Positions 15,747-31,008 of a stretch of DNA of 64,000 nt are shown here, in pieces. The stretch comes from Candidatus Tectimicrobiota bacterium. GTDB lineage: Bacteria; JACPUC01. The translations under genes were made by a program, and so were the position numbers. The stretch spans positions 1-64,000 of the forward strand of contig JACPUC010000026.1 of assembly GCA_016192455.1 (NCBI GenBank), written 5' to 3'. The notes under the pieces are model-generated. The model worked only from the letters and a program-made list of their open reading frames with translations. It was not told the origin of the DNA and searched no databases. How positions within the stretch are numbered: the stretch's first letter is position 1; the number at the start of each line of letters is the position of its first letter.

Positions 15747-16414
15747 TCGAAATCCTCCTCCCTGCATGATGCTAACTATGGGTTCTCTTGTTTCGTAATA
15801 GACCCTGAATCATCTTCTCATCCAGCATAAGATTCCATGATTTTACCAGCAAAGAAACTTGGTCGGTTGATTTGAGAAAATAGACTCACAGCCAACCGTC
15901 GCAACAGCGAACTCCTCTCCCTCCATCTCGCATCCTCACGGGCTTACCCAAAAACTCCTCACTTGCACTATTGCCACTTCCATTCTCGGATTTCAAGTAT
16001 TTTTTTGCTTATGTGCAAAACAGCATCGTACCTGTCACACTGCTCAGCCACGGAAACTTTACTGCCACAACCAGTGCTAGCTTTGCTCTTAACGCCTTCG
16101 CCTCCTCCCCTTCTGACTTCCCGCCAGCCGCCCCCCCTTCGCAGGACGGCGCGGCGCCGCCGCAATTGCAAGCCGAGTCGTCTTCTGGCACACTAGCCGC
16201 GGCCTCCCATGGCTGGCCCCGGCAGAGCGTCCTGCCGCGGGGTTGACGGCGCGGCGGCATGCCACCCGACTCGACGCCGCCCAGCCGCCGGAGTCCCTGG
16301 GAGACCGAGGCCGCGCTCGTGGCAGGACGCTCTCCGGCGGCCGCGGAAGAGGGTGGCGCGGGGTGCGGCAGGCGTGGTCTGCAACGGCACACCCGGGCCG
16401 GCCCGCGCGGCGCA

Positions 16415-17929
16415 ATGGAAGCATCCCCGTTGACCGGCTCTCCCGACATCCACAGCCGCTCCGCCGCCTTCCCCGCCGACCTGCCGGGCGACCTCGAAGG
16501 CGAAGCGCCTCCCGCAACCTCGCCGGTGGCAGCCGCTCCGCACCGCCTCTTCTGGTTGCTGGCGATGGTCGGCAGCGGCGCCATCCTGCTGCCGCTCAAC
16601 ACCTCCATGCTCGGTCTGGCGCTGCCGCGCATCATGGACGACTTCGGCGTCAGCGTCTCCGCCGCCACCTGGTTGATGATCAGCTACATGATCACCGTCT
16701 CGGCCACGCAGCCGCTGGCGGGGCGCCTGGGCGATAAGTTCGGGCATCAGCGTATCTTCAATGTAGGGATGATCTGCTTCGCGGCGGCATCGGTGGTCTG
16801 CGCGCGTGCCCCAAGCTTTTCGACGCTCATCCTGGGGCGGGTGCTGCAAGGCATCTGCGCCGCGGCGCTGTTGCCGAACGGCTTCACGCTGGTGCGCTAC
16901 CACACCGCGGCGAACCAGCGCGGCAGGGCGATCGGCTTCATCGGCGGCATCTCGGGCACCTCGGCCGCCTTCGCGCCGGCCGTGGGCGGGCTGCTCGTGG
17001 CGTTCTTCAGTTGGCAGGCGATCTTCTGGATCAATGTGCCGATCGTCCTCCTGGGCTTGGTCATCGCCACCCTCATCGTCGGCAAGGTCTCAACCCCGCG
17101 CGACCCGCATCCCCGTTTCGATCACCTGGGGAGTCTCCTCCTGGCGGCCTTCGCCGTCAGCCTCACCCTCGCCATCAGCTTGCAGGGACGGTCAGGCCTG
17201 CCGCCGCTGCTTGGCCTCTGGCTGGGGCTGGGGTCGGCGGTCAGCCTGGGGCTCTTCCTCTGGCATGAGCAGCGCGCGGTGGCTCCCTTCCTGCACCTGT
17301 CGCTCTTCCGCATCCGCACCTACGTGGCGGCGACCTTCTGCTCCTGCTTCCTCAACCTCACCACCTTCGGCATCATCTTCATGAACCCCCTCATTCTTCA
17401 GCAAGTCCTAGGGTATACTCCGGGAGAAGCCGGGACGCTGCTGCTGGCGTTCTCCGGCGTCATCGCCATTGCGGCGCCGCTGGGCGGCACCCTCAGCGAT
17501 CGCTTCGGCCGGCGCCTGCTGCCGACCATCGGGCTGGTTCTCTTCATGTTCGGCAATCTCCTCTACTTCGCGGTTGACGCCGCCAGCGGCATGGCGCTCT
17601 TCCTCCTCTGCTTCGTCATTACCGGCGCCGGCTTTGGCCTGGCGTTCGCCGTGCTCCAGACCGCGGCGCTGGAAGCCTCGCCGCCGGAGCACTCCGGCGT
17701 GGCCACCGGGGTCTACCTGATGGCCCGCTACGTCGGTGGCGCGGTGGGCGTCAGCATCGTCAGCGGTGCCACGATCCAGGCCACCGGCAGCGCCTTGATG
17801 CCCTCCTTTCACCGCGCCATCGCCTTGCTCATCATCTTCACCATCCCGGCGTTGGCGCTGGCGCTGGTCATCCGGCCCCGCTTCGACCTGACGCGGCTGC
17901 CGGCTGGGTCTCCCGCCCAGGCTCGCTAG
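16415..17929 (+). CDS. MFS transporter, DHA2 (EmrB/QacA) type
   Basis: Many TM segments; GRLGDKFG motif A, GRVLQG, WQAIFWINVP and GTLSDRFGRR. Start uncertain. Confidence 0.9.
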   Translation: MEASPLTGSPDIHSRSAAFPADLPGDLEGEAPPATSPVAAAPHRLFWLLAMVGSGAILLPLNTSMLGLALPRIMDDFGVSVSAATWLMISYMITVSATQPLAGRLGDKFGHQRIFNVGMICFAAASVVCARAPSFSTLILGRVLQGICAAALLPNGFTLVRYHTAANQRGRAIGFIGGISGTSAAFAPAVGGLLVAFFSWQAIFWINVPIVLLGLVIATLIVGKVSTPRDPHPRFDHLGSLLLAAFAVSLTLAISLQGRSGLPPLLGLWLGLGSAVSLGLFLWHEQRAVAPFLHLSLFRIRTYVAATFCSCFLNLTTFGIIFMNPLILQQVLGYTPGEAGTLLLAFSGVIAIAAPLGGTLSDRFGRRLLPTIGLVLFMFGNLLYFAVDAASGMALFLLCFVITGAGFGLAFAVLQTAALEASPPEHSGVATGVYLMARYVGGAVGVSIVSGATIQATGSALMPSFHRAIALLIIFTIPALALALVIRPRFDLTRLPAGSPAQAR

Positions 17930-18102
17930 CCGGAGAGCGACCCGAAACCTGCCGCGGCAGTTTGGCCGCGGGCAGCCGCTCAGTCGGCGGGCGGCGAGGG
18001 GCGCGGCGATCTTAAGCCTTGCCGCGGCGGAGCGGTTGCGACGCCGCCTTCCAACGCCACGGGGATCCCCATCTCCTCCCCGCAGAGGAGGAGGGGAGCA
18101 CG

Positions 18103-19620
18103 TTGTCGAGGCGCGGCCGGCAGGAGCGGCGCGCCGCGGACGCCGGGCCCTCCCGAACCAACGAGGCACCGAGCGTGGCAGACGAATCGCCCAGTGAACC
18201 GGGAACCACCGTCGGAGCCTCCGCCGGGCCCGGCAAACCGCTTGGCTTGGCGCTCCTCGTCGGCATGGCTGTCAGCGGCACGATCCTCATGCCGCTCAAC
18301 ACCACGATGTTGGCGCTTGCCCTGCCGCGCGTCATGGCGGACCTCGACATCCAGGTGTCGGCGGCGGGCTGGCTGATGACCGCCTACCTCATCACCGGAG
18401 CCGCCACGCTTGCCATCAGCGGGCGCCTCGGCGACATGTACGGGCAGCAGCGCGTCTTCAACCTCGGCCTCATCACCTTCGCCGCCGCCTCCATGGTCTG
18501 CGCCCTGGCCCCCAACTTCGTGATCCTGCTGGTGGGGCGCATCCTCCAGGGCGCCACAGGCTCCGCCATCGTCCCCAACGGTTTCGCGCTGGTACGCTAC
18601 GGTTCCGCACCGCGCCAGCGCGGCCGCGCCTTTGGCTTCGTCACCTGCTCCAACGCCACGGCGGCAACCGTCGCGCCCGCCCTCGGCGGGTTCATCGTGG
18701 AGGCGTTCAACTGGCAGGCAATCTTCCTGCTGAACCTGGGGTTTGTCACCCTGAGCCTCATGCTTGGCAGCCTTGCCGCCGGCCGCTTATCGACGCCGCG
18801 CGATGCGGGCACGCGCCTCGATAACCTCGGCAGCACGCTGCTGGCGGCGTTCAGCATCAGCCTCGCCATCGCCATCAGCATCCGAGGCGGAGGGCAGACG
18901 CCCGCCGGGCTGCCGCCCTTGCTCATCGCCATCGCAGTCCTCAGCTTCCTCCTCTTCCTCGTGCAGGAGCACCGGGCCCGCGTGCCGCTGGTGCGCCTGG
19001 CCCTGCTGCGCATCCGCAACTTTCTGGCCGCCACCCTCTGCTCGAGCTTCCTGAACCTCACGATGTATGGGTTTTACCTCCTCATCCCCTTGATCCTCCA
19101 AGACATCCTCGGCTACAGCCCCACCGGCGCCGGCGTCATGATGCTGCTCTTCACCGGCGCCATGGCTCTGGCCGCGCCGTTCGGCGGCAGTTTGAGTGAT
19201 CGTGTCGGGCGTCGCCTCATTCCCATCCTGGGGCTCTCGACGCTGGCAGTCAGCGGCCTCTTCTTCCTGGGGATCGAGGCCGGGGCAAGCCCGACCTACG
19301 TGCTCGCCTGCTTCCTGGGCATCGGCGCGGGCTCCGGCATGACCTTCCCGGTGCTGCAGACGGCCTCCCTGGAGGCCGCGCCGCCGGAGCACACCGGGGT
19401 CGCCTCGGGGGTGTACTTCACGGCACGCTACCTGGGGGGATCGATCGGCACCAGCATCATCAGCCGCACCACCCACGGCGTGGCGCCCGGCGCCCTCCTG
19501 CCTGCCTATCGCCTGGCGCTCGTCTACCTCATCATTTGCGCGGGCGTCGCGGTCTTCCTGGCGGCCGCGCTGCGGCCGCGCTTCGATGCCTCGGTGTGGC
19601 GCCCCGCGGGGCGGAGGTGA
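18103..19620 (+). CDS. MFS transporter, DHA2 type (tandem paralog)
   Basis: GRLGDMYG, GRILQG, WQAIFLLN and GSLSDRVGRR motifs; TTG start after GGAGGAGGGG. Confidence 0.9.
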   Translation: MSRRGRQERRAADAGPSRTNEAPSVADESPSEPGTTVGASAGPGKPLGLALLVGMAVSGTILMPLNTTMLALALPRVMADLDIQVSAAGWLMTAYLITGAATLAISGRLGDMYGQQRVFNLGLITFAAASMVCALAPNFVILLVGRILQGATGSAIVPNGFALVRYGSAPRQRGRAFGFVTCSNATAATVAPALGGFIVEAFNWQAIFLLNLGFVTLSLMLGSLAAGRLSTPRDAGTRLDNLGSTLLAAFSISLAIAISIRGGGQTPAGLPPLLIAIAVLSFLLFLVQEHRARVPLVRLALLRIRNFLAATLCSSFLNLTMYGFYLLIPLILQDILGYSPTGAGVMMLLFTGAMALAAPFGGSLSDRVGRRLIPILGLSTLAVSGLFFLGIEAGASPTYVLACFLGIGAGSGMTFPVLQTASLEAAPPEHTGVASGVYFTARYLGGSIGTSIISRTTHGVAPGALLPAYRLALVYLIICAGVAVFLAAALRPRFDASVWRPAGRR

Positions 19621-19816
19621 ACCGGCCGCAGTATCCCCGGCATTTTTGCACGGCAGGGCGACGCGCGGCCTCGCCGCAAGCGCCTGCCGCATGGCGCGGC
19701 GGAATACCGCCGGTTTGGCGAGCGGCGGGCGAGGCCACGGCAGGCACGCTGCCGGGGCGTCATGGCGCCGCGCACCGTTACGGACCCAAGCCCCTGGTAC
19801 AGCTCGGAGATCCCCT

Positions 19817-21118
19817 ATGCAGGCACAGCGACGCGTCTTCTATGGCTGGTACGTCGTGGCGGTCTCCTTTCTGACCATGGGCATCAGCGTGGGACTGTGG
19901 TACGGCTACTCCGTCTTCTTCGTGGCCCTCATCAAGGAGTTTGGGCAAAGCCGCGGGGTCACGGCGGGCGCCGGCGCCTTCAACGCCGTGGTCGCCATGG
20001 CAGTGATGCCGTTCATCGGGCGCCTCTTCGATCGCCTCGGGTCGCGCCGCATGCTGCCGGCGGGGGCGGGCGTTCTCGCCCTGGCGCTGCTCCTCAGCTC
20101 GGCGGCAGGCTCGATCTGGCAGTTCTACCTCACCTACGGCGTTCTCGGCGGCATTGGCTTCATTGCCCTCGGCTTCGTGCCTCATACGGCTCTCATCAGC
20201 AACTGGTTCCACCGCAAGGTCGGTCTGGCGCTGGGGGTGGCCTTCTCCGGGGTGGGGGTGGGCACCGCCACGGTCGTGCCGCTCTGCCAATACCTCATCG
20301 ACCTCTGGGGCTGGCGAACGACCATGGCGATCCTGGGGGGCGTCATCCTCCTCGTCCTGGCGCCCCTCACCGCCTTGGTGCAGGTGCCACGACCGGAAGA
20401 CCTCGGCTTGCAGCCGGATGGCCAGGCACCCGCTACGGCTCTGGAACGCGGCGCCCCGGCCCAGCCTCAGGCGCACGCCGCCTCCAGCCGCGCCCCCGCC
20501 GCATGGACGCTCCAACGCGCCGTCGGCGAGCCGCGCTTCTGGAGTCTCTTCGTCGTGCTCGTCGGCGGGGGCTACGCCTTGCAGGCGGTGCAGACCCACC
20601 ACGTGGCGCTGCTCACCGACGTGGGAATACCGGCCCTCAAGGCGGCGCTCCTGTTCAGCGTGCTGTCGATCTCCCGCATGGCCGGGCAGCTCTTCTGGGG
20701 CGCCCTCTCGGATCGGCTCGACCGCACCACGGCGTACAGCTTCAGCTCGTTGAGCTTCATTCTGGGCATCGTCCTCCTCATGTTCGTGCGCACCCCCCCG
20801 TCGCTCGCCCTTATCTACGGCTACGCCATCCTCTTCGGTTTCGGCTCCGGCGCCCTCAGTTCGATCCCCTCCGCGATGTCGGCCGATCTCTTTCGGGGCG
20901 GCCACTTCGGCCTCATCTTCGGCGTGCTCGATACTGGCTTCCAGCTCGGCACGGGCGCCGGAAGCTGGGTGAGCGGCCTGCTCTTCGACGCGTTCCAGAA
21001 CTACCAGCTTGCGCTCGGCCTTGCGGCATGCGGCGTCCTGGTCTCCTGCCTAAGCGGTTGGATCGTCACGCTGCCACGACGGTGGGCGCGCTCCCCCTCG
21101 CAGGAAGAAGCGGCATGA
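19817..21118 (+). CDS. MFS transporter (OFA/MCT-like)
   Basis: FYGWYVV N-terminus; GRLFDRLGSR, NWFHRKVGLALG and GALSDRL motifs. Confidence 0.9.
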   Translation: MQAQRRVFYGWYVVAVSFLTMGISVGLWYGYSVFFVALIKEFGQSRGVTAGAGAFNAVVAMAVMPFIGRLFDRLGSRRMLPAGAGVLALALLLSSAAGSIWQFYLTYGVLGGIGFIALGFVPHTALISNWFHRKVGLALGVAFSGVGVGTATVVPLCQYLIDLWGWRTTMAILGGVILLVLAPLTALVQVPRPEDLGLQPDGQAPATALERGAPAQPQAHAASSRAPAAWTLQRAVGEPRFWSLFVVLVGGGYALQAVQTHHVALLTDVGIPALKAALLFSVLSISRMAGQLFWGALSDRLDRTTAYSFSSLSFILGIVLLMFVRTPPSLALIYGYAILFGFGSGALSSIPSAMSADLFRGGHFGLIFGVLDTGFQLGTGAGSWVSGLLFDAFQNYQLALGLAACGVLVSCLSGWIVTLPRRWARSPSQEEAA

Positions 21119-23109
21119 CCTCCCTCCGTCACGCTGCCCTGGCCATGGCGCTCCTCCTTGGCTGCCTGCCGGCCGGCTCTCCGCCGGCGTTTGCCCAGGC
21201 GGCGAAGGAGGCCGCCGCGGCTCCCTACCGCGACACCGGAAACTTCGCCGAGGACCTCAAAGCCTTCCTGACGGCGCGCGGCGTCATGCCTGCTTATGAG
21301 AAGCTCAGCCGGGCGCTCGACCAGGTCTACCGGCGTCAGAGCCCCAGCAGCGAGTACGCCAAGACGAGCTACTTGCTGCGACGCGTGGCCGCGGCCTTCA
21401 CCGACCCCGTCTCCCTCGATCAGGAGGCCCGCCGCACGGACCTGGCGCTGCGCCGCGCCGCCGGGACGCTTCCCGGAACGGCGCAGGAGATCCTCCGTGT
21501 CGCGGCGGATCACCTGGACTTGGCGGTCGAACGACAAGCCCCACCGCCGCCGTTCCCTGATCCCCTGACCGCGGAGGCGCTCTTCGATTACTTCGAGCTC
21601 CTTTTCGCGCGCGCCCGCGGCGTCACGCGGGCAGCCTTCTCCGCGCTCTCCGACTCGGAGCGCGCTTTCCTGCGCCGCCACGCCGCCGAGCTTGCGGCGC
21701 GCTTCGTTGGGCATCTCTACGTCAACGCGTCGGCCCCCCGCGACGTCGCCAGCCGCAACCTGGCGCTCCTCAAGCTCACCGAGAAGCTCAGCTACGACTC
21801 GCTCCTGCGCGCCGCGCTCGACCTTGCGGCGGGGATCGATGGCAAGCTGCTGGCAGCCTTGCGCCAGGGCGTAGCGGCGGCTTCTCCGCCGGCGCCGCGA
21901 CCAGGTCTCAGTGGCGACGTCCTCGCCGTGCGCGAGACGGAGTACGGCCTCTTCGTGCTGGGAGGCCCCGGCCCCACGAGGTACGATGAGGATGCGGCGC
22001 TGATCATCGACCTGGGCGGCGATGACTGGTACGCGAACAACGCCGGCGCCTCGATCTCCGCCGCCCAGGCGCATGCCGTGCTCCTCGACCTTGCCGGCGA
22101 CGACCACTACATGGCGCCCGCCGGCAGCCCCGGCGCGCCGCGCCTCGCCAGCCAGGGGAGCGGCGTCTTCGGAGTGGGCCTGCTCTTCGACCTGGCGGGG
22201 AACGACACCTATCGCGGCGGGCGTTTCGCGCAGGGGAGCGGTCATTTCGGCGTGGGGGTCCTCTTTGATGGCGGGGGGAACGACACTTACGAGGCGGAGG
22301 AGTATGCGCAAGGAAGCGGCGTTGTCGGCATCGGCCTGCTCATCGATGCCGCCGGCAACGACGCCTACGCCGCGAAGCTCTTCGCGCAGGGCTTCGGCGC
22401 CGTGAAGGGGTTTGGCGGCCTCATCGAGCTAGGCGGGGATGACCGCTACCTGGCGGGGCAGGCGCACCCGAGCGCCTGGCGCCACACCGACAGCCACGCC
22501 AGCATGGCCCAGGGCTTCGGCATCGGCCACCGTGGGCTGACGACGGGCGGGATCGGCGTGCTGCTCGACGCGGCGGGAAACGATCGCTACACCTGCGAGG
22601 AGATCTGTCAGGGCGGAGGGTACTTCCTCAGCCTGGGGATGCTCCTCGACGGCAGCGGCGATGATCAGTATGACGCCACGATCTACGCCCTTGGTTTCGG
22701 CCTCCACTCCGCGGCCGGCATCCTCATCGATGCGGCAGGCAACGACCGTTACCGGGTGACGAAGCGCAACTCCCAGGGGGACGCCTGGGACGCCGCCGTG
22801 GGCATCTTCATTGATGAGCGCGGCGACGACCACCATGAGGCGAACGTCTTCGGGCAGGGGGCGGGAGCGCAGAACGGCTTCGGCGCCTTTCTCGACCGCG
22901 CCGGTTCGGACACCTACGTGGGGGTGGCGGTGCGCGGCTACGCCGGCGGCAACTGGTACGGCACCGACGAGGAGGGCGGCCCCACGCGCGGAGCCGCCAG
23001 CATCGGCTTCTTCTTCGACGGCGGCGGAGCGCGCGACCTCTACCATGGGCCGGGAGACGACGACCGCACCACCGTCCGCCCCGACCTGACGATCTTCATC
23101 GACCAGTGA
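21115..23109 (+). CDS. secreted protein with about 12 D-x-x-G-x-D-x-Y repeats
   Basis: Signal peptide (MTSLRHAALAMALLLG...AFA); repeats such as LLFDLAGNDTY and LLIDAAGNDAY separated by QG-x-G turns; ATGA overlap with the upstream MFS gene. Confidence 0.85.
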   Translation: MTSLRHAALAMALLLGCLPAGSPPAFAQAAKEAAAAPYRDTGNFAEDLKAFLTARGVMPAYEKLSRALDQVYRRQSPSSEYAKTSYLLRRVAAAFTDPVSLDQEARRTDLALRRAAGTLPGTAQEILRVAADHLDLAVERQAPPPPFPDPLTAEALFDYFELLFARARGVTRAAFSALSDSERAFLRRHAAELAARFVGHLYVNASAPRDVASRNLALLKLTEKLSYDSLLRAALDLAAGIDGKLLAALRQGVAAASPPAPRPGLSGDVLAVRETEYGLFVLGGPGPTRYDEDAALIIDLGGDDWYANNAGASISAAQAHAVLLDLAGDDHYMAPAGSPGAPRLASQGSGVFGVGLLFDLAGNDTYRGGRFAQGSGHFGVGVLFDGGGNDTYEAEEYAQGSGVVGIGLLIDAAGNDAYAAKLFAQGFGAVKGFGGLIELGGDDRYLAGQAHPSAWRHTDSHASMAQGFGIGHRGLTTGGIGVLLDAAGNDRYTCEEICQGGGYFLSLGMLLDGSGDDQYDATIYALGFGLHSAAGILIDAAGNDRYRVTKRNSQGDAWDAAVGIFIDERGDDHHEANVFGQGAGAQNGFGAFLDRAGSDTYVGVAVRGYAGGNWYGTDEEGGPTRGAASIGFFFDGGGARDLYHGPGDDDRTTVRPDLTIFIDQ

Positions 23110-24167
23110 GCGCCCGCACCATGGCACGAACATCCCGCCCGCGGGCACGACATGCCGGTCCGCGGCTCCCCCCATGGCCTCGCGGAACCGTGCGCCGCCG
23201 GCCTCCCTGGCTGCGTTCCTGCCTGAGCTGGCTGCTGATCAGCGGAGTCCTTGCGGGAGCGGCGGCGGCGAGCCACGCGCAGGGGCGCCGTGCAGAGTAC
23301 GCCCCCGCCTCGGTCGGGGAGGAGATGATCCTTGTGCCAGCCGGCCCCTTCGCCATGGGAAGCGACGCCGGCGAGGCGAACGAGGCGCCGCTGCGCCGCG
23401 TCACGCTCGCTGCCTTCCGCATCGACCGCCTGGAGACGACGAACGCCGAGTTCGCTGCCTTCGTGCTCGTAACCGGCCACCGGACCAGCGCCGAGGAGCG
23501 CGGCTGGGGCTGGGTCTGGACCGATCGTTGGCGGCGCGTGGACGGCGCCGACTGGCGCCACCCCCACGGACCCGCCAGCACCATCGCCGGCCTCGCCACC
23601 CACCCGGTCGTGCAGGTGAGCTGGCATGACGCGCGCGCCTACTGCGCCTGGCGCGGCAAGCGCCTGCCGAGCGAGGCGGAGTGGGAGAAGGCGGCCCGCG
23701 GGGCAATCCAAGAGACTGGAAAGGAGAATGAGGCGCTGGAGCGCGCCGAGGTCCAGCGCTACCCGTGGGGTGCGGCCTCGCCGCGCGCCGCCGGCATGCA
23801 GCGCGCAAATTACGGCAGCGACGCTTGCTGCCGCCCGGACGAGAGTGACGGGCACCTCACCACCGCCCCGGTGGGGAGCTACCCGCGCGGGACCTCGCCC
23901 TACGGCGTCCTCGACATGGCGGGGAATGTCTGGGAGTGGACGGAGGACTGGTACCATCCCGCCGCCTACCGCAGTCTGCCCGACCTCAACCCCGTGATGC
24001 GGGCGCCTTCCGGCGAGAAGGTGATCCGCGGCGGCGGCTGGGGGAACGACGCGTACGGCCTGCGCCTCACTTACCGCCACATGAACGACCCCTCCTTCTC
24101 CCTCGACATGGTGGGGATTCGCTGCGCCGCGGATGCCGAGCCCCCGGCGTCTCGCGCGCTTCCGTGA
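23106..24167 (+). CDS. formylglycine-generating-enzyme (SUMF1/PvdO) family protein
   Basis: FAMGS, HPVVQVSWHDARAYC, RLPSEAEWEKAARG, DMAGNVWEW and GIRCA motifs; N-terminal hydrophobic signal. Confidence 0.9.
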   Translation: MSARTMARTSRPRARHAGPRLPPWPRGTVRRRPPWLRSCLSWLLISGVLAGAAAASHAQGRRAEYAPASVGEEMILVPAGPFAMGSDAGEANEAPLRRVTLAAFRIDRLETTNAEFAAFVLVTGHRTSAEERGWGWVWTDRWRRVDGADWRHPHGPASTIAGLATHPVVQVSWHDARAYCAWRGKRLPSEAEWEKAARGAIQETGKENEALERAEVQRYPWGAASPRAAGMQRANYGSDACCRPDESDGHLTTAPVGSYPRGTSPYGVLDMAGNVWEWTEDWYHPAAYRSLPDLNPVMRAPSGEKVIRGGGWGNDAYGLRLTYRHMNDPSFSLDMVGIRCAADAEPPASRALP

Positions 24168-25067: not shown

Positions 25068-26528
25068 CTATGCCACCGCCGCGAGGATGTCGCGGCTCAT
25101 GCCGCGCTGCGCCAGCCACTTCGGCAGCAACTCCTGCTCGACGCGCCGGATGACCCGCGGCGCGGCCCGACGAAGGTACGCGGCCAGCGACTCCGAGACG
25201 TTCATCCCCATGCTGGCGCCGTCGAAGATGATCACCTTGTCGGTCTTGGCGGTGCGGTAGGCGAAGTCCATCGCCGTTTCCAGCGTGTCGGCGATCATGG
25301 CGTGCTTCATGTACTCCATGTTCTGCGGGTCGCGGTTGAAGAGGTCCGCCTGCTCGCGCCCGACGACGATCGTCGGCGTGTTCTTCGAGAAGAAGACGCA
25401 GGGGTAACCGCCGAAGGCGTAGTTGTGCACCACCATCTTCAGCGCCGGGTTCACCGGCGGGATGTCCGGCAGCAGCTTCTTGCCGCTGCGCGTGTAGTAG
25501 GACTCGGTGTAGAAGGTGTACGGCGGCAGCGGCACGTCGAGGTCGAAGAGGTCCACGTTGGCGTCGATCATGTTGGCGTAAATGGTGCCGCCGGCAAAGA
25601 CGTAGGGGATGGGCCCGGGGAAGTCGAGGATGCAGATGCACTCGTCGATCTCGCCGAAGAGGTTGACGAGCTTGCTGTAGTACTTCAGCCCTATGGCGTT
25701 GACGCGTTCATCGATGGCGTAGAGGTTATTCTCGGCATCAACGCTGAGGATGCCGTAGGGCGACATCTGCAGGAAGACGGCGAAGGCGAACTTCTTCTGC
25801 ACGAAATCGCTGTCGAAGATGGCGCGGGCGACGAAGTTCGAGGCGCGGGGGCCGAGGTTCTGATGGTAGCACGAGCGCGTCTCGATGCGCGCGTACGACA
25901 TGCCGAAGGGCTTCACGGCGCGGTCGAGCTGGCGGTGGAAGTGGATCTCGCGCACGTCGCTGTTGTGCGTGTGCACGATCCAGTCGGCGTTGTAGGCCTG
26001 CGCCAGGCCGTAGAGGCGGCCGATCACCGTGTCGATGGCAACGCCGCGGTCGATGGGGCTGATGTTCGTCGCCTGGCCTTCGAAGTAGTCATCCAGGCCG
26101 TGCAGCTTGATGTACTCCTCGGACTCGCGGAAGCGCAGGCCGACGCCGGCGCGCAGGCGCACCTTGCGCGTGCCGGTGCGCTCGATGATGACGTCGCGCA
26201 GGGTGCGCAGCATTTCCGCATAGGGACCGCCCCCCAGCAGCGTGAAGCCGTGGTGCGAGGCCAGGAGGTTCACCGTGTGCCCCGGCTTGATCATGCCGAG
26301 GTCGACGTTCTCCAAGGCGCGCACGGTCGCCTCGCGGATGGCCGCCAGGCCGTCGCGGCCGTCCCCTTCGCTGCGCGGGTAGATGACCGGCGGCGCTTCG
26401 GGGAAGAGCTCGGCGATGCCGACCGAGGTGATCCCCGGCAGCTCGCAGCCCCGCATCTTGACCAGGGCCGGATCAATGCCGTACTGCGACTTGCGGGGCT
26501 TTGCCGGCGGCAAGGGTTGGCGTGTCAT
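25068..26528 (-). CDS. conserved hypothetical enzyme, possibly distant LarA/DUF2088-DUF362 superfamily
   Basis: 486 aa, clearly coding, GAGGGGG RBS. The IKPGHTVNLLASHHGF...ADWIVH...VKPFG...YH pattern resembles LarA-like proteins; that family call is tentative. Confidence 0.75.
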   Translation of the reverse strand: MTRQPLPPAKPRKSQYGIDPALVKMRGCELPGITSVGIAELFPEAPPVIYPRSEGDGRDGLAAIREATVRALENVDLGMIKPGHTVNLLASHHGFTLLGGGPYAEMLRTLRDVIIERTGTRKVRLRAGVGLRFRESEEYIKLHGLDDYFEGQATNISPIDRGVAIDTVIGRLYGLAQAYNADWIVHTHNSDVREIHFHRQLDRAVKPFGMSYARIETRSCYHQNLGPRASNFVARAIFDSDFVQKKFAFAVFLQMSPYGILSVDAENNLYAIDERVNAIGLKYYSKLVNLFGEIDECICILDFPGPIPYVFAGGTIYANMIDANVDLFDLDVPLPPYTFYTESYYTRSGKKLLPDIPPVNPALKMVVHNYAFGGYPCVFFSKNTPTIVVGREQADLFNRDPQNMEYMKHAMIADTLETAMDFAYRTAKTDKVIIFDGASMGMNVSESLAAYLRRAAPRVIRRVEQELLPKWLAQRGMSRDILAAVA

Positions 26529-26530
26529 GG

Positions 26531-27145
26531 TTAGACCCCCTCTCGGCTGGCGCGCAGCGTTTGGTTCAGCAGCGCCAGGTCCTCTTCGAAGCGGAACCGC
26601 GGGTGCTGCTCCCGAACCGCCTGCGGAATTTCCCAGGCGGTGATGCAGTCGGAGTACCACTGGTAGCCTTTGCCCGGTGGCTTGCCGAAGTCGCGTCCGG
26701 CGGCGCGGAGCATGCGCATCATCGGCTGGCAGCACTCCACGCCGCAGCCGGTCAAGGTGCCGGTGAGGCGGGAAAGGTCGCCGGGGTTTTGCGCCCCCTC
26801 GAGCACCGCCGCTGCCAGCTCGTCGGCGCGTGTGCCGGTGCAGAAGCAGACGATCTGCTCCGGGTTGATCTTGGCCCGGGCGCAGAGCGCCTCGATCTCC
26901 TCCCGGTTGTACTTGCCGGCGTCGAGGCCGATGGTGTACGGCTCCACGGGCACCATGTCGATGCAGCGCTCCGGGCAGCGCTGCTCGCAGTTCCAGCAGC
27001 CAGGACAGTGCGTCTCGTCGATGACCGGCAGCAGACGGTCTCGTTTCTCCATCGTAATCGCCAGGGTCGGGCAGACGTGGGCGCAGATGGCGCAGCCCGT
27101 ACATTCATCCGCCCGCACTTTGGCTACCAGATTGACCACACGCAT
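26531..27145 (-). CDS. 2[4Fe-4S] ferredoxin fused to a BFD-like [2Fe-2S] domain
   Basis: CTGCAICAHVCP, CPGCWNCEQRCP, then VCFC...GCGVEC; GGGGAG RBS. Confidence 0.88.
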   Translation of the reverse strand: MRVVNLVAKVRADECTGCAICAHVCPTLAITMEKRDRLLPVIDETHCPGCWNCEQRCPERCIDMVPVEPYTIGLDAGKYNREEIEALCARAKINPEQIVCFCTGTRADELAAAVLEGAQNPGDLSRLTGTLTGCGVECCQPMMRMLRAAGRDFGKPPGKGYQWYSDCITAWEIPQAVREQHPRFRFEEDLALLNQTLRASREGV

Positions 27146-27535: not shown

Positions 27536-28174
27536 ATGAAGCCGGAAGATATCTATGCCCGCTTTGGGATCGGCACGCAGCGCGTTGGTTTCGGCAACAC
27601 GCCGGCCATCCTCGTCATTGACATGCAGCGCGACTTCTTCGACGAGAACGCCTCCACCGGCGGCGTGGAGACGGCGGCCCACGGCCCCATCGCCAAGCTC
27701 CTCGAGGCGGCGCGCACCGCCGGCGTCCACGTCATCTACACCCAGCAGGGGCACCGCGACGACATGGCCGACGGACCCCGCTGGGTCGACAAGTTCCCCG
27801 GCTTGAAGCGCGGCGGCCTGCGCACCGGCAGCACGGGCGCGCAGATCGTCCACGAGCTGGCGCCGCAGCAGGGGGACTACGTGGTTGAGAAGCGCCGCCC
27901 TAGCGGCTTTTTCCAGACCGACCTCGACCTCTACCTGCGCTCCCTCGGCGTGGATACGGTCATCGTCACCGGCTGCACCACCAGCGGCTGCGTGCGGGCG
28001 ACGGCGGTGGACGCCTTCTCGTACAACTACCGCGTCATCGTGCCGCGCGAGTGCGTCGCCGACCGCGCCCCGGAGCCGACCGAGGCGAACCTCTTCGACA
28101 TCAACATGAAGTACGGCGACGTGCTAAAGCTTGCTGAGGTGCTCGACTACCTGAAGGCCCTCAAGAAGAGCTAA
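27536..28174 (+). CDS. isochorismatase-family amidohydrolase (N-carbamoylsarcosine amidase / maleamate amidohydrolase NicF-like)
   Basis: VIDMQ, K-R-R-PSGF and GCTTSGCVRATAVDA (Asp-Lys-Cys triad); GGAGGAG RBS. Confidence 0.9.
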   Translation: MKPEDIYARFGIGTQRVGFGNTPAILVIDMQRDFFDENASTGGVETAAHGPIAKLLEAARTAGVHVIYTQQGHRDDMADGPRWVDKFPGLKRGGLRTGSTGAQIVHELAPQQGDYVVEKRRPSGFFQTDLDLYLRSLGVDTVIVTGCTTSGCVRATAVDAFSYNYRVIVPRECVADRAPEPTEANLFDINMKYGDVLKLAEVLDYLKALKKS

Positions 28175-28223: not shown

Positions 28224-29492
28224 GTGAGACTGGAGCTGCACCACCACCAAGTCAGCGGCATCAGCTTCGGCGAGGCGACCGGGCTCGGCGCCGGAATGCT
28301 GACGATCAACCGCGAGGAGCTGAGCGCGCTGCTGTTGGCCGACGAGCGCCTTGCGGCGGTCTCCTTCGACCTCGCCGCGCCCGGCGAGGACTGCCGGATC
28401 ATCCAGGTCTGGGATGTGGTCGAGGCGCGCTACCGCGGCGACGGCGCGAACTTCCCCGGCATCCTGGGACCAATCGAGGCGGTGGGACGCGGCGTGACGC
28501 ATACCCTGAAAGGGATGGGCGTCGTCATCACCAATCCCTCGTCCAGGGGACCGGAGGCGAAGGTGATCGACATGGCCGGCCTGGGCGCCGAGTGGGGACT
28601 CTACGGCCGGCTGCATCACCTCGTCGTGCAGCCGCAACCCGCCCCCGGCCTGCCGGCCCCGGAGCTCCTCTACGCCCTGCGCAAGGCCCAGGTGGCCGCC
28701 GCTGTTTACCTGGCGCGGGCAGCCGCCGCCGCGCGCGCCGATGAAGTCGAGGTGTTCGACCTGCCCCCCCTCGGCAGCCGCCCCGACGCGGACTCCGGCC
28801 TGCCGCGCGTCGCCTACGTCTTCCAGATTCACTCCCACCAGCGCCCCACCGAGGACGCCGAGCCGGTCCTCTACGGCAACAACGTGCGCAACTTCCTGCC
28901 GACCATCCTGCACCCCAACGAGGTGCTCGACGGCGCCCTGGTGCGCTCGTACTACCGCAAGGGGTTCGAGACCTACACGGTGCAGAACCACCCGATCATC
29001 AGGGAGATGTACGCGCGCCACGGCAAGGAGCTGGAGTTCGCCGGCGTCGTCGCCACGGTGGCGCACCAGACCGAGCCGGAACGCCTGCAGAGCGCGGCGA
29101 TGGCGGCGAACCTGGTGGCCGAGGTGCTGGGCGCGAACGGCGCGGTGCTCACCAAGACCGGCGGCGGCGCGCCGCACATCGACATGGCGCAGATTGCCGA
29201 ACTGCTCGAAGCACGCGGCGTGGCGACGGTGATGATGGCCATGGACATGTCGGTTGACGGCAGCGCGGAGGGGGGCTCGCTCTTCAGCTTCCCCGGCGCC
29301 GACGCCATCGTCAACTACGGCTTTTCCCCCTCGCCCCTGGCGCTCCCCCCCGCCGCGCGCATCATCGGCGGAGCGCCGGAGACGCTCGTTTACGGCCGCC
29401 CGGCCAGCGGCGCCATCGAGGTCGATCTCGAGGTCCTCGCCGGCGCCGAGAACCCCATCGGCGCCAACCGCGTCATGGCGGCGCACTATTGA
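28224..29492 (+). CDS. glycine/sarcosine/betaine reductase component B alpha/beta proprotein-like (GrdE-like)
   Basis: MRLELHH N-terminus; A-x-PGEDCRII, GRGVTHTLKG, LPRVAYV, PTILHPNEVLDGA and QNHPII motifs. Confidence 0.88.
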   Translation: MRLELHHHQVSGISFGEATGLGAGMLTINREELSALLLADERLAAVSFDLAAPGEDCRIIQVWDVVEARYRGDGANFPGILGPIEAVGRGVTHTLKGMGVVITNPSSRGPEAKVIDMAGLGAEWGLYGRLHHLVVQPQPAPGLPAPELLYALRKAQVAAAVYLARAAAAARADEVEVFDLPPLGSRPDADSGLPRVAYVFQIHSHQRPTEDAEPVLYGNNVRNFLPTILHPNEVLDGALVRSYYRKGFETYTVQNHPIIREMYARHGKELEFAGVVATVAHQTEPERLQSAAMAANLVAEVLGANGAVLTKTGGGAPHIDMAQIAELLEARGVATVMMAMDMSVDGSAEGGSLFSFPGADAIVNYGFSPSPLALPPAARIIGGAPETLVYGRPASGAIEVDLEVLAGAENPIGANRVMAAHY

Positions 29493-29544
29493 GCGGTGCG
29501 CATTGACGTGGCGCGTCGAGCAGCAGGCTGATTTTTTCTTTGGT

Positions 29545-29636
29545 GGGGAATCATTGATCCCCCACACCCCCTCTCCGCGCGAGCTGCACAGCAGCTCGCG
29601 TAGTCGGGGTGCGCGAGGGGACGAGGTTCCCTCGCA
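29545..29636. repeat. structured intergenic repeat, copy 1
   Basis: Shares TCATTGATCCCCCACACCCCCTC and CGGGGTGCGCGAGGGG...CCCTCGCA with 60959-61052; three hairpins. Confidence 0.85.
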
Positions 29637-29667
29637 GACAAAAAACGATCTCCCGAAAGGCCGCACC

Positions 29668-31008
29668 ATGGCAGGCCCTTTGCGCATCGTTCACTACCTC
29701 AACCAGTTCTTCGGGCAGCTCGGCGGCGAGGAGGCGGCGGGCGCGGCGCCGCAAGCGCGCGACGGCGCCATCGGGCCGGGGCTGGCGATCGTGAAGCTGC
29801 TGGAACAGCGGCGCTGCGAAAGCGGCGAACTTGCGGCCGAAGTGGTCGGCACGGTCATCTGCGGCGACAACTACTTCATCGAGACGCCGACCGCCGGCGA
29901 CGAGGTCTTTGCGCTCATCGCCCCCTATCGCCCGCGGCTCCTCATCGCCGGGCCGGCGTTCAACGCGGGGCGCTACGGCATCGCCTGCGCGGCGGTCTGC
30001 AAGATGATCGGCGACAAGCTCGGCATCCCCGCAGTCACCGGCATGCACGAGGAGAACCCCGGCGTCGACATGTACCGCCGGGACGTCGTCATCGTGCGCA
30101 GCGGCGCGAGCGCCCGCGCCATGCTCCCCACGATGGAGCGCATGTTGACGGTGGCGCTGAAGCTGGTGCGCGGCGAAGCGCTCGCTCCGGCCCGCCTGGA
30201 GGGCACCTTCGCCCAGGGCCGCGTGCGCAACGAGCTGGCCGCCGAGACCGGCGCGCGGCGCGCCGTCGCCATGCTCCTAGCCAAGCTGCGCGGTGAAACG
30301 CCGACCACGGAGCTGGAGCTGCCGCGCTTCGAGAAGGTGCGTCCGGCGCCCGCCATCGTGGACCTCACGACCGCCACCATCGCTCTGGTGACGGACGGCG
30401 GCCTCGTCCCCCTGGGAAACCCCGACGGCATCGAGTCCATCTCGGCGACGAAGTTCGGCGTCTACGACATCGGCGGCGCCGAGCGTCTCGAAGCGTCGCG
30501 CTACGAGTCAGTGCACCGCGGCTACGACGTGCGCTACGTGAACGCCGACCCCCAGCGCCTGCTGCCGGTGGATGTGCTGCGCGAGCTGGAGCGCGACAAG
30601 CGCATCGGCAGGCTGCACCCGCGCTTCTACTCGACGACCGGCGTCGCCACGACGCTGCGCAACAGCCGCGCCCTCGGTGCCGCCATGGCGGAGCGCCTGC
30701 GATCGGAGGGGGTGCAGGCGGTCATCCTCACCTCGACGTGAGGCACGAGCACCCGCTGCGGCGCAGCGATCGCCAAGGAACTCGAACGCGCCGGCCTGCC
30801 GACGGCGCAGGTCTGCACCATGACGCCGGTGGCCAAGACCGTCGGCTCGCCGCGCATTGTTCCCGCCGCCGGCATCGTCCACCCGCTGGGCAACGCCCAG
30901 GCCACGCCGGAGGCTGAGCAGAAGCTGCGGCGCGACATCATCCGGCGCGCTCTCCAGGCCCTGCAAGCCGACGTGACGGAGAGCACCGTCTTTCCCGCGC
31001 AGAGCTAG
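29668..31008 (+). CDS. glycine/sarcosine/betaine reductase selenoprotein B (GrdB-like); Sec at UGA 30739-30741
   Basis: HYLNQFFGQLGGEE, CGDNYF, GPAFNAGRYG motifs. VILTST-UGA-GTSTRCGA continues in frame with a GrdB-like C-terminus (KTVGSPRIVP...HPLGN) to TAG at 31008. Confidence 0.93.
30742..30774 (+). promoter_or_regulatory. bacterial SECIS-like hairpin
   Basis: CGCTGC (30754-30759), loop GGC, GCAGCG (30763-30768). The G-initial loop lies 18 nt after the UGA; possible lower GGC/GCC stem. Confidence 0.75.

Follow-up and report, generated by a model that had tools for sequence, protein, structure and literature searches.

The component B subunits of glycine, sarcosine and betaine reductases (GrdE, GrdG and GrdI) make up the PF09338 family. 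In canonical GrdE and GrdG, the Cys that follows SGN becomes a pyruvoyl group, with autocatalytic cleavage into fragments of approximately 25 and 22 kDa and a carbonyl at the new N-terminus. To our knowledge, Grd-type selenoenzymes are known biochemically for five substrates, namely glycine, sarcosine, betaine, proline and fluoroacetate. Here, we analyzed a GrdE-like gene and its surroundings in a 64,000-nucleotide stretch of DNA from Candidatus Tectimicrobiota bacterium (positions 1 to 64,000 of contig JACPUC010000026.1, assembly GCA_016192455.1; hereafter, the window). In C. difficile GrdE, the probe-labeled peptide carrying the Cys-derived pyruvoyl spans residues 242-266, according to the available part of PMC9908766. 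FarE from fluoroacetate reductase lacks both cysteines and, like GrdI, is not a proprotein, as stated in the accessible text of PMC10838667. The cleavage Cys is also missing from the window protein, as it is in betaine and fluoroacetate reductases, and its substrate is therefore probably a still-unknown compound. Overall, we consider it likely that the GrdE-like gene encodes an unprocessed, pyruvoyl-free subunit of a Grd-type substrate-specific protein B, which resembles GrdHI and FarBE and acts on a substrate other than glycine or sarcosine.

The open reading frame (ORF) at 28224..29492 on the forward strand starts with GTG and encodes 422 amino acids, including PTILHPNEVLDGALVRSYYRKGFETYTVQNHP, and its G+C content at third codon positions (0.92) is coding-like for a window of 67% GC. 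The product matched PF09338 with 300.5 bits (cut-off 22.2), residues 2-418 aligning with positions 2-424 of the 426-position profile, and was further characterized by alignment, a tree and AlphaFold2 modeling. Where canonical members have the cleavage/pyruvoyl segment SGNCVSACDKNTTY, this protein reads RSYYRKGFETY within the loop L239-Y251 (LVRSYYRKGFETY; 28938..28976, forward strand); both conserved cysteines are gone, and the loop is shorter by approximately five residues. In a MAFFT alignment of 21 sequences, Tyr244 takes the place of the first canonical Cys, and the position of the second, in VSAC, is a gap of 4-5 residues. We then compared the 120 best homologs (48-64% identical, apart from the self-match), of which 119 could be parsed for the loop. 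Its length was 16 residues in all 119, and 109 of them had no Cys in it; Cys occurred at position 245 in nine and elsewhere in one (position 245 is Gly in 102 members, Cys in 9, Ala in 5, Ser in 2 and Arg in 1). Because the loop length is common to all of these homologs and most are free of Cys, the missing cysteine is a lineage trait, neither chance nor a sequencing artifact. The absence of the motif, which had been noticed in an earlier reading made from the sequence without database searches (the sequence-only reading), was thus confirmed by translation, alignment and homologs. Across several phyla, 58 columns were invariant among 25 clade sequences.

Within the loop, Arg241 and Thr250 were the only invariant positions (119/119). 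Cys57, in PGEDCR (codon 28392..28394, forward strand), is the sole cysteine of the whole protein, and its position was Cys in 113 of the 120 homologs and Val in the canonical rows, which read PGESVR. The presence of Ser242 in the window protein, the invariance of Thr250 and the conservation of Cys57 would each be compatible with processing at one of these residues, yielding a carbonyl or a new N-terminus, and processing at Ser had been suggested in the sequence-only reading. However, just 3 of 119 clade members carry Ser242, and neither Ser nor Cys is conserved in any column of the loop, which argues against a serine site. Thr250 is likewise unchanged among the Cys-type proteins of the 21-sequence alignment; since these are cleaved elsewhere, it is no replacement site. 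Cys57 opens a beta-strand of the N-terminal domain, a long way along the chain from the canonical site, and this strand was modeled confidently (predicted local distance difference test score, pLDDT, 96 for residues 51-60; whole model, mean pLDDT 82.6 and predicted template modeling score 0.87). Judging from this model, Cys57 is not plausible as a cleavage site, and we know of no precedent for processing at such a position. Overall, we regard processing at another residue as very unlikely. Under the favored reading of an unprocessed chain, the invariant Arg241 in its short loop and the clade-specific Cys57 are instead candidate substrate-binding or redox residues.

None of the specific NCBI models reached its cut-off with the GrdE-like protein (GrdG, 193 bits against 780; FarE, 187 against 675; PrdA, 34.7 against 700), and no GrdI model appeared among the NCBIfam matches. 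When 1.84 billion representatives were scanned without a profile, 1003 clusters were returned at E ≤ 0.001, and the best 150 were inspected for the Cys segment. The representatives P0268, P0231 and P0225 carry the canonical segment DGAI[LV]SGNCVSACDK[NS][TS]TY (P0268: DGAILSGNCVSACDKNTTYHHLNNP), so that the motif stated for the family in the sequence-only reading does occur, and P0268 scored 631 bits on the NCBI GrdG model. A G[NC]C-type canonical segment was present in only 6 of these best 150 representatives and the Cys is reported as missing from GrdI and FarE (accessible text of PMC10838667), so its loss is less unusual than had been assumed. No FarE-level match occurred among the 110 family representatives scanned. 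We also considered the source names of homologs for telling GrdE, GrdG and GrdI apart and rejected them, as all were generic and uninformative.

A maximum likelihood tree was built from 119 rows, comprising 110 full-length representatives and six clade members in addition to the window protein with its two paralogs from the same genome; 40 representatives outside 400-460 amino acids were left out. Its deep branches call for caution, because the LG+G4 model was used in 'quick' mode with supports from the Shimodaira-Hasegawa-like approximate likelihood ratio test (SH-aLRT) only. Representative P0003 was the sister of the window protein (support 100), and both fell in a 33-tip clade of short-loop proteins (SH-aLRT 92). 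Cys stood in the canonical column in six of the 119 rows, the window protein not among them, and five of these six grouped in a separate clade of six tips (support 82). The two paralogs from the same genome formed a third clade (support 100). Thus, the alignment revealed no conserved cleavage Cys elsewhere in the protein (Cys57 being conserved yet not plausible in that role) and the tree placed the protein outside the Cys-bearing clade; neither of the two outcomes that had been named as contradicting the proposal, a cleavage Cys at another site or a position within characterized GrdE/GrdG clades, was obtained.

The GrdE-like gene is followed by a gene for a GrdB-like selenoprotein (29668..31008, forward strand), whose read-through translation gives 446 amino acids with selenocysteine (Sec) at position 357 and which matched PF07355 with 434 bits. 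Translation and relatives support reading the in-frame TGA at 30739..30741 (forward strand) as Sec, in ILTST-U-GTSTRC. Directly 3' of this codon lies a hairpin resembling a Sec insertion sequence (SECIS) element (30742..30779, forward strand), which matched the Rfam model RF01990 SECIS_4 with 35.4 bits (E 1.6e-5), slightly below the gathering score of 38. The minimum free energy fold of the 62 nt 3' of the TGA did not differ from that of shuffled sequences (z 0.63), and the Rfam covariance model is the more informative of the two. The genome encodes SelB (366 bits) and SelD (389 bits). The SelD gene (G000:C3:190907-191827) has one in-frame TGA itself and therefore probably encodes a selenoprotein as well. 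In a scan of a genome collection, 345 related loci were found, and all counts out of 80 given below refer to the best 80 of these 345. The GrdB-like gene adjoins the GrdE-like gene in 74 of 80 loci, and TGA stands at the Sec position in 71, with a Cys codon in none; in the remaining nine, no complete GrdB-like gene was present within the DNA fetched. Three loci from Chloroflexota metagenome-assembled genomes (MAGs; L013, L031 and L041) have clade GrdE-like genes but lack a GrdB-like gene in the flanks fetched, and L031 carries a thioredoxin-reductase-like gene directly upstream.

The partner belongs to the selenoprotein B family (TIGR01918; 377.5 bits, cut-off 65.45). It scored below the NCBI cut-offs for GrdF (387 against 800), GrdH (340.2 against 775), GrdB (338.5 against 602) and PrdB (31.6 against 300). 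After Sec, its sequence ILTST-U-GTSTRCGA gives the motif UxxSxxC, compared with the canonical UxxCxxC (available part of PMC13188914). With the diagnostic GrdB/GrdF motifs taken from the accessible methods of PMC9751293, we found the family-wide elements YxNx6GGE, CGD and GPxFNAGRYG in the partner, with a GGE-to-CGD spacing of 43, outside the 34-38 range. The GrdB-specific elements AHGGxD[QTAP], RV[IL]PxD and TxGNxTxV and the GrdF-specific IHGGYDR and TTGTGT were all absent from it. The missing Cys and the separate clade of the GrdE-like protein, together with the partner's lack of these motifs and its low scores, support the proposals that this protein B is not cleaved at Cys, probably does not act on glycine and may need no Schiff base. 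By sequence, the clade appears to fall outside the glycine, sarcosine, betaine, proline and fluoroacetate reductases in every respect tested, GrdI being compared through hidden Markov model (HMM) scores and a published statement. In two loci (L051 and L057), the partner reads TST-U-GTSTRG, with the last Cys of the motif lost too. A link between Cys57 and the change to UxxSxxC was considered and found not to be strict, as Geobacteraceae-type loci combine Val57 with UxxSxxC.

Structure prediction of the complex, which had been suggested as a check, gave a confident interface between the GrdE-like protein and residues 1-357 of the partner (score 0.95, compared with 0.00 for the best of three controls). 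Among 157 solved complexes, 116 scored at this level, as did 2 of 215 mismatched pairs. The prediction runs shared at least 88% of their contacts, and the pLDDT of the partner was at least 88. No solved relative of either subunit was found by sequence, and a Foldseek search of the PDB with the GrdE-like model returned nothing at E ≤ 0.001, only generic flavodoxin-like matches to part of it; no solved relative that the predictor could have memorized was thus found.

Based on these data, we provide a putative mechanism. The GrdE-like subunit would remain one uncleaved chain without a pyruvoyl group and bind the adjacent GrdB-like selenoprotein. By analogy with GrdHI and FarBE, the Sec of the latter may attack the alpha-carbon of a substrate of the type X-CH2-COO-, from which X would leave with no need of a Schiff base. 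This would yield a carboxymethyl-selenoether to be handed over to GrdA, and the acetyl unit might then be freed via GrdC. Both of these proteins are encoded in the genome, on another contig than the window pair: GrdA (192.6 bits) has one TGA and a CxxU motif reading CFVU, and GrdC scored 646 bits (cut-off 450). GrdC was present in all six clade genomes checked, that of the window and five others. Within 6 kb of the related loci, GrdC was encoded in 33 of 80 and GrdA in 25, followed by a DsbA-like protein (18), thioredoxin (16) and a 2-hydroxyacid dehydrogenase (15). In Rokubacterial relatives, the gene for the DsbA-like thioredoxin-fold protein lies directly 3' of the GrdB-like gene (18/80; L014, L018, L028 and 15 others), and the 2-hydroxyacid dehydrogenase gene often lies 5' of the GrdE-like gene (15/80); the window has neither.

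Several points weigh against the reading of an unprocessed protein B with a substrate other than glycine or sarcosine. In canonical systems, acetyl phosphate is formed by GrdD, the alpha subunit of protein C. We found no GrdD in the genome of the window (88% complete), and none of the five other clade genomes had a match above the cut-off (best scores 24-29 bits against 350); the later steps may therefore depart from the textbook scheme. A PlsX/GrdD-like gene stands beside the pair only in seven more distant Geobacteraceae-type loci (L063, L069-L071, L073, L084 and L088). The predicted interface excludes the loop (residues 238-253), although the last 89 residues of the partner, which carry the Sec, lay outside the model, and the loop itself was modeled with moderate confidence (pLDDT 67 for residues 241-250). 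The apparent relation to GrdI and FarE is drawn from HMM scores and the statement of one paper. Moreover, the role of the GrdE pyruvoyl is debated; the available text of PMC9908766 relays a proposal that GrdB bears a carbonyl of its own, and the loss of the pyruvoyl may therefore not exclude an amine substrate.

According to this proposal, glycine would be bound by the carbonyl of GrdB, and the pyruvoyl of GrdE would merely keep GrdB active. The window pair could then still be a reductase of glycine, sarcosine or another N-substituted glycine, with the Schiff-base carbonyl elsewhere, for example in the GrdB-like subunit, and a dispensable pyruvoyl in GrdE. The accessible part of PMC10838667 speculates that the carbonyl yet to be identified is a formylglycine formed from the Ser of the STUG motif in GrdB, and STUG is present in the partner. 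A gene with a formylglycine-generating enzyme (FGE)-sulfatase domain (23106-24167, forward strand; PF03781, 231 bits) also lies approximately 4 kb upstream. However, genes on the opposite strand separate this gene from the operon, and the FGE family is not among the annotated recurrent neighbor clusters, which involved no dedicated conservation test. The partner lacks the elements specific for GrdB and GrdF and stays far under their cut-offs, and no carbonyl was detectable on C. difficile GrdB, as far as the available part of PMC9908766 reports.

The nearest gene upstream encodes an isochorismatase-family amidohydrolase (27536..28174, forward strand; PF00857, 159.7 bits), which ends 49 nt before the GrdE-like gene on the same strand. 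Members of this family include enzymes that free amines from carbamoyl or amide compounds, which would suit an amine substrate. The best NCBIfam matches of the amidohydrolase were BiuH (91 bits) and RutB (82 bits), both far under the cut-offs, and its homologs bear automatic names such as 'maleamate amidohydrolase' and 'nicotinamidase-related amidase'. It is probably co-transcribed with the GrdE-like gene here, yet it is not a conserved partner, as no homolog stood beside the GrdE-like gene in any of the 80 related loci. We therefore rejected it as a conserved link to the substrate, for example through an N-carbamoylsarcosine-type pathway, the names of its relatives being generic; the sole gene of the local context thus gives no substrate clue, which is a further point against our proposal. 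Taking both sides together, we consider an amine reductase with its carbonyl elsewhere unlikely.

SbcCD-like genes lie downstream of the GrdB-like gene, and the local unit therefore consists of the amidohydrolase, GrdE-like and GrdB-like genes. The spacer between the two subunit genes (29493-29667) measures 175 nt, compared with mostly approximately 20-50 nt in related loci, and contains a hairpin-rich dispersed repeat of approximately 77 nt (29560..29636, no strand assigned). A blastn search of the spacer against the genome returned dozens of copies with approximately 85-95% identity on many contigs, and the repeat looks like a dispersed element of the repetitive extragenic palindrome (REP) or miniature inverted-repeat transposable element (MITE) type. 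Three major facilitator superfamily transporter genes in tandem (16259-21118, forward strand) and a 678-amino acid ORF on the reverse strand (25068-27104), which has a coding-like composition and no Pfam or NCBIfam match, were also noted in the window.

The genome holds three GrdE-like/GrdB-like pairs, including that of the window. Together with the repeat inserted between the subunit genes and the lack of conservation in the local gene context, this could indicate a decayed, non-functional paralog left by duplication of grd genes. In contrast, both frames are intact, the Sec codon and the SECIS-like hairpin are kept, and invariant residues extend through the clade across several phyla. Additionally, TGA was retained in 71 of 80 loci, with no case of replacement or loss, and the predicted interface is confident. 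A pseudo-enzyme is therefore, in our estimate, the most improbable of the explanations considered. The two further Sec pairs of the genome lie at G000:C5:54622-57129 (L010) and G000:C30:92888-95302 (L011) and have the Sec motif TAT-U-GTGVRC. Their GrdE-like proteins also lack the cleavage Cys (DGAVVSHHYDISPGMKNTTY and DGAVVSFHYDMPPGVKNNTY, respectively). The first pair is flanked by genes for a molybdenum hydroxylase and an AMP-binding enzyme, and the second lies 3' of hydantoinase A/B genes.

Having weighed these alternatives, we retain an unprocessed protein B of the GrdHI/FarBE kind as the favored reading. The best 80 of the 345 loci all come from MAGs, assigned to Methylomirabilota/Rokubacteria, Chloroflexota, Binatia, Desulfobacterota and a few others, and the automatic source names of the homologs are 'glycine reductase' or 'sarcosine reductase'. 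We found no description of the clade in the literature, supplements not being covered, and PMC9751293, which touches on GrdB and GrdE in these phyla, filtered for the GrdB motif according to its accessible text. We tentatively speculate that the pair represents a large undescribed Grd-type branch, spread through Rokubacteria/Methylomirabilota, Chloroflexota, Binatia and Desulfobacterota of soil and groundwater, which might reductively cleave a new class of X-CH2-COO- compounds without a pyruvoyl and mostly without GrdD, using a re-wired active site (Arg241, Cys57 and UxxSxxC) and a DsbA-like or thioredoxin reductant. If so, this would be a new reaction, possibly with a fate of the acetyl unit other than acetyl phosphate.

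To a specialist, the missing Cys by itself is unsurprising, because GrdI and FarE already lack it; this state is known and frequent within the family. The novelty lies in an uncharacterized variant that combines a short loop, Arg241, Cys57, UxxSxxC and no GrdD. This clade is widespread, conserved and Sec-dependent in abundant uncultured phyla of soil and sediment, and automatic labels of glycine or sarcosine reductase would wrongly credit these organisms with Stickland-type glycine reduction. Identification of the substrate would extend selenium biochemistry by one reaction and explain the upkeep of the costly Sec machinery.

Compared with GrdE/GrdB and GrdG/GrdF, the window pair has the same combination of PF09338 and PF07355, the same gene order, Sec in STUG and, probably, the same dependence on GrdA and GrdC; it differs in the absence of the cleavage Cys, the shorter loop, the lack of the specific motif elements and scores under the cut-offs. 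In D-proline reductase, both subunits (PrdA and PrdB) are distantly homologous to the window pair, and PrdA has a Cys-derived pyruvoyl. The architecture differs, however, the window protein has no cleavage Cys, and the scores are far apart (34.7 against 700 for PrdA and 31.6 against 300 for PrdB). Betaine reductase from Eubacterium/Peptoclostridium acidaminophilum comes closer, as GrdI, like the window protein, belongs to PF09338 without the conserved Cys, and it is not a proprotein according to the accessible text of PMC10838667. It is paired with the GrdB-family selenoprotein GrdH, works with GrdA and protein C and acts on a substrate that forms no Schiff base. In contrast, the window partner scored 340 against 775 on the GrdH model and has UxxSxxC as its Sec motif, GrdD was not found in the window's genome, and the window clade occurs not in Firmicutes but in uncultured phyla from soil and sediment. 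In the fluoroacetate reductase of Cloacibacillus porcorum MFA1 (FarE/FarB; NF053623), FarE is unprocessed and has no Cys pair, and the system uses GrdA (available part of PMC10838667); the window protein scored 187 against 675 on the FarE model. The CxxC after Sec is altered in FarB, which the same text reports to be without it, whereas the window partner retains one of the two Cys, in UxxSxxC.

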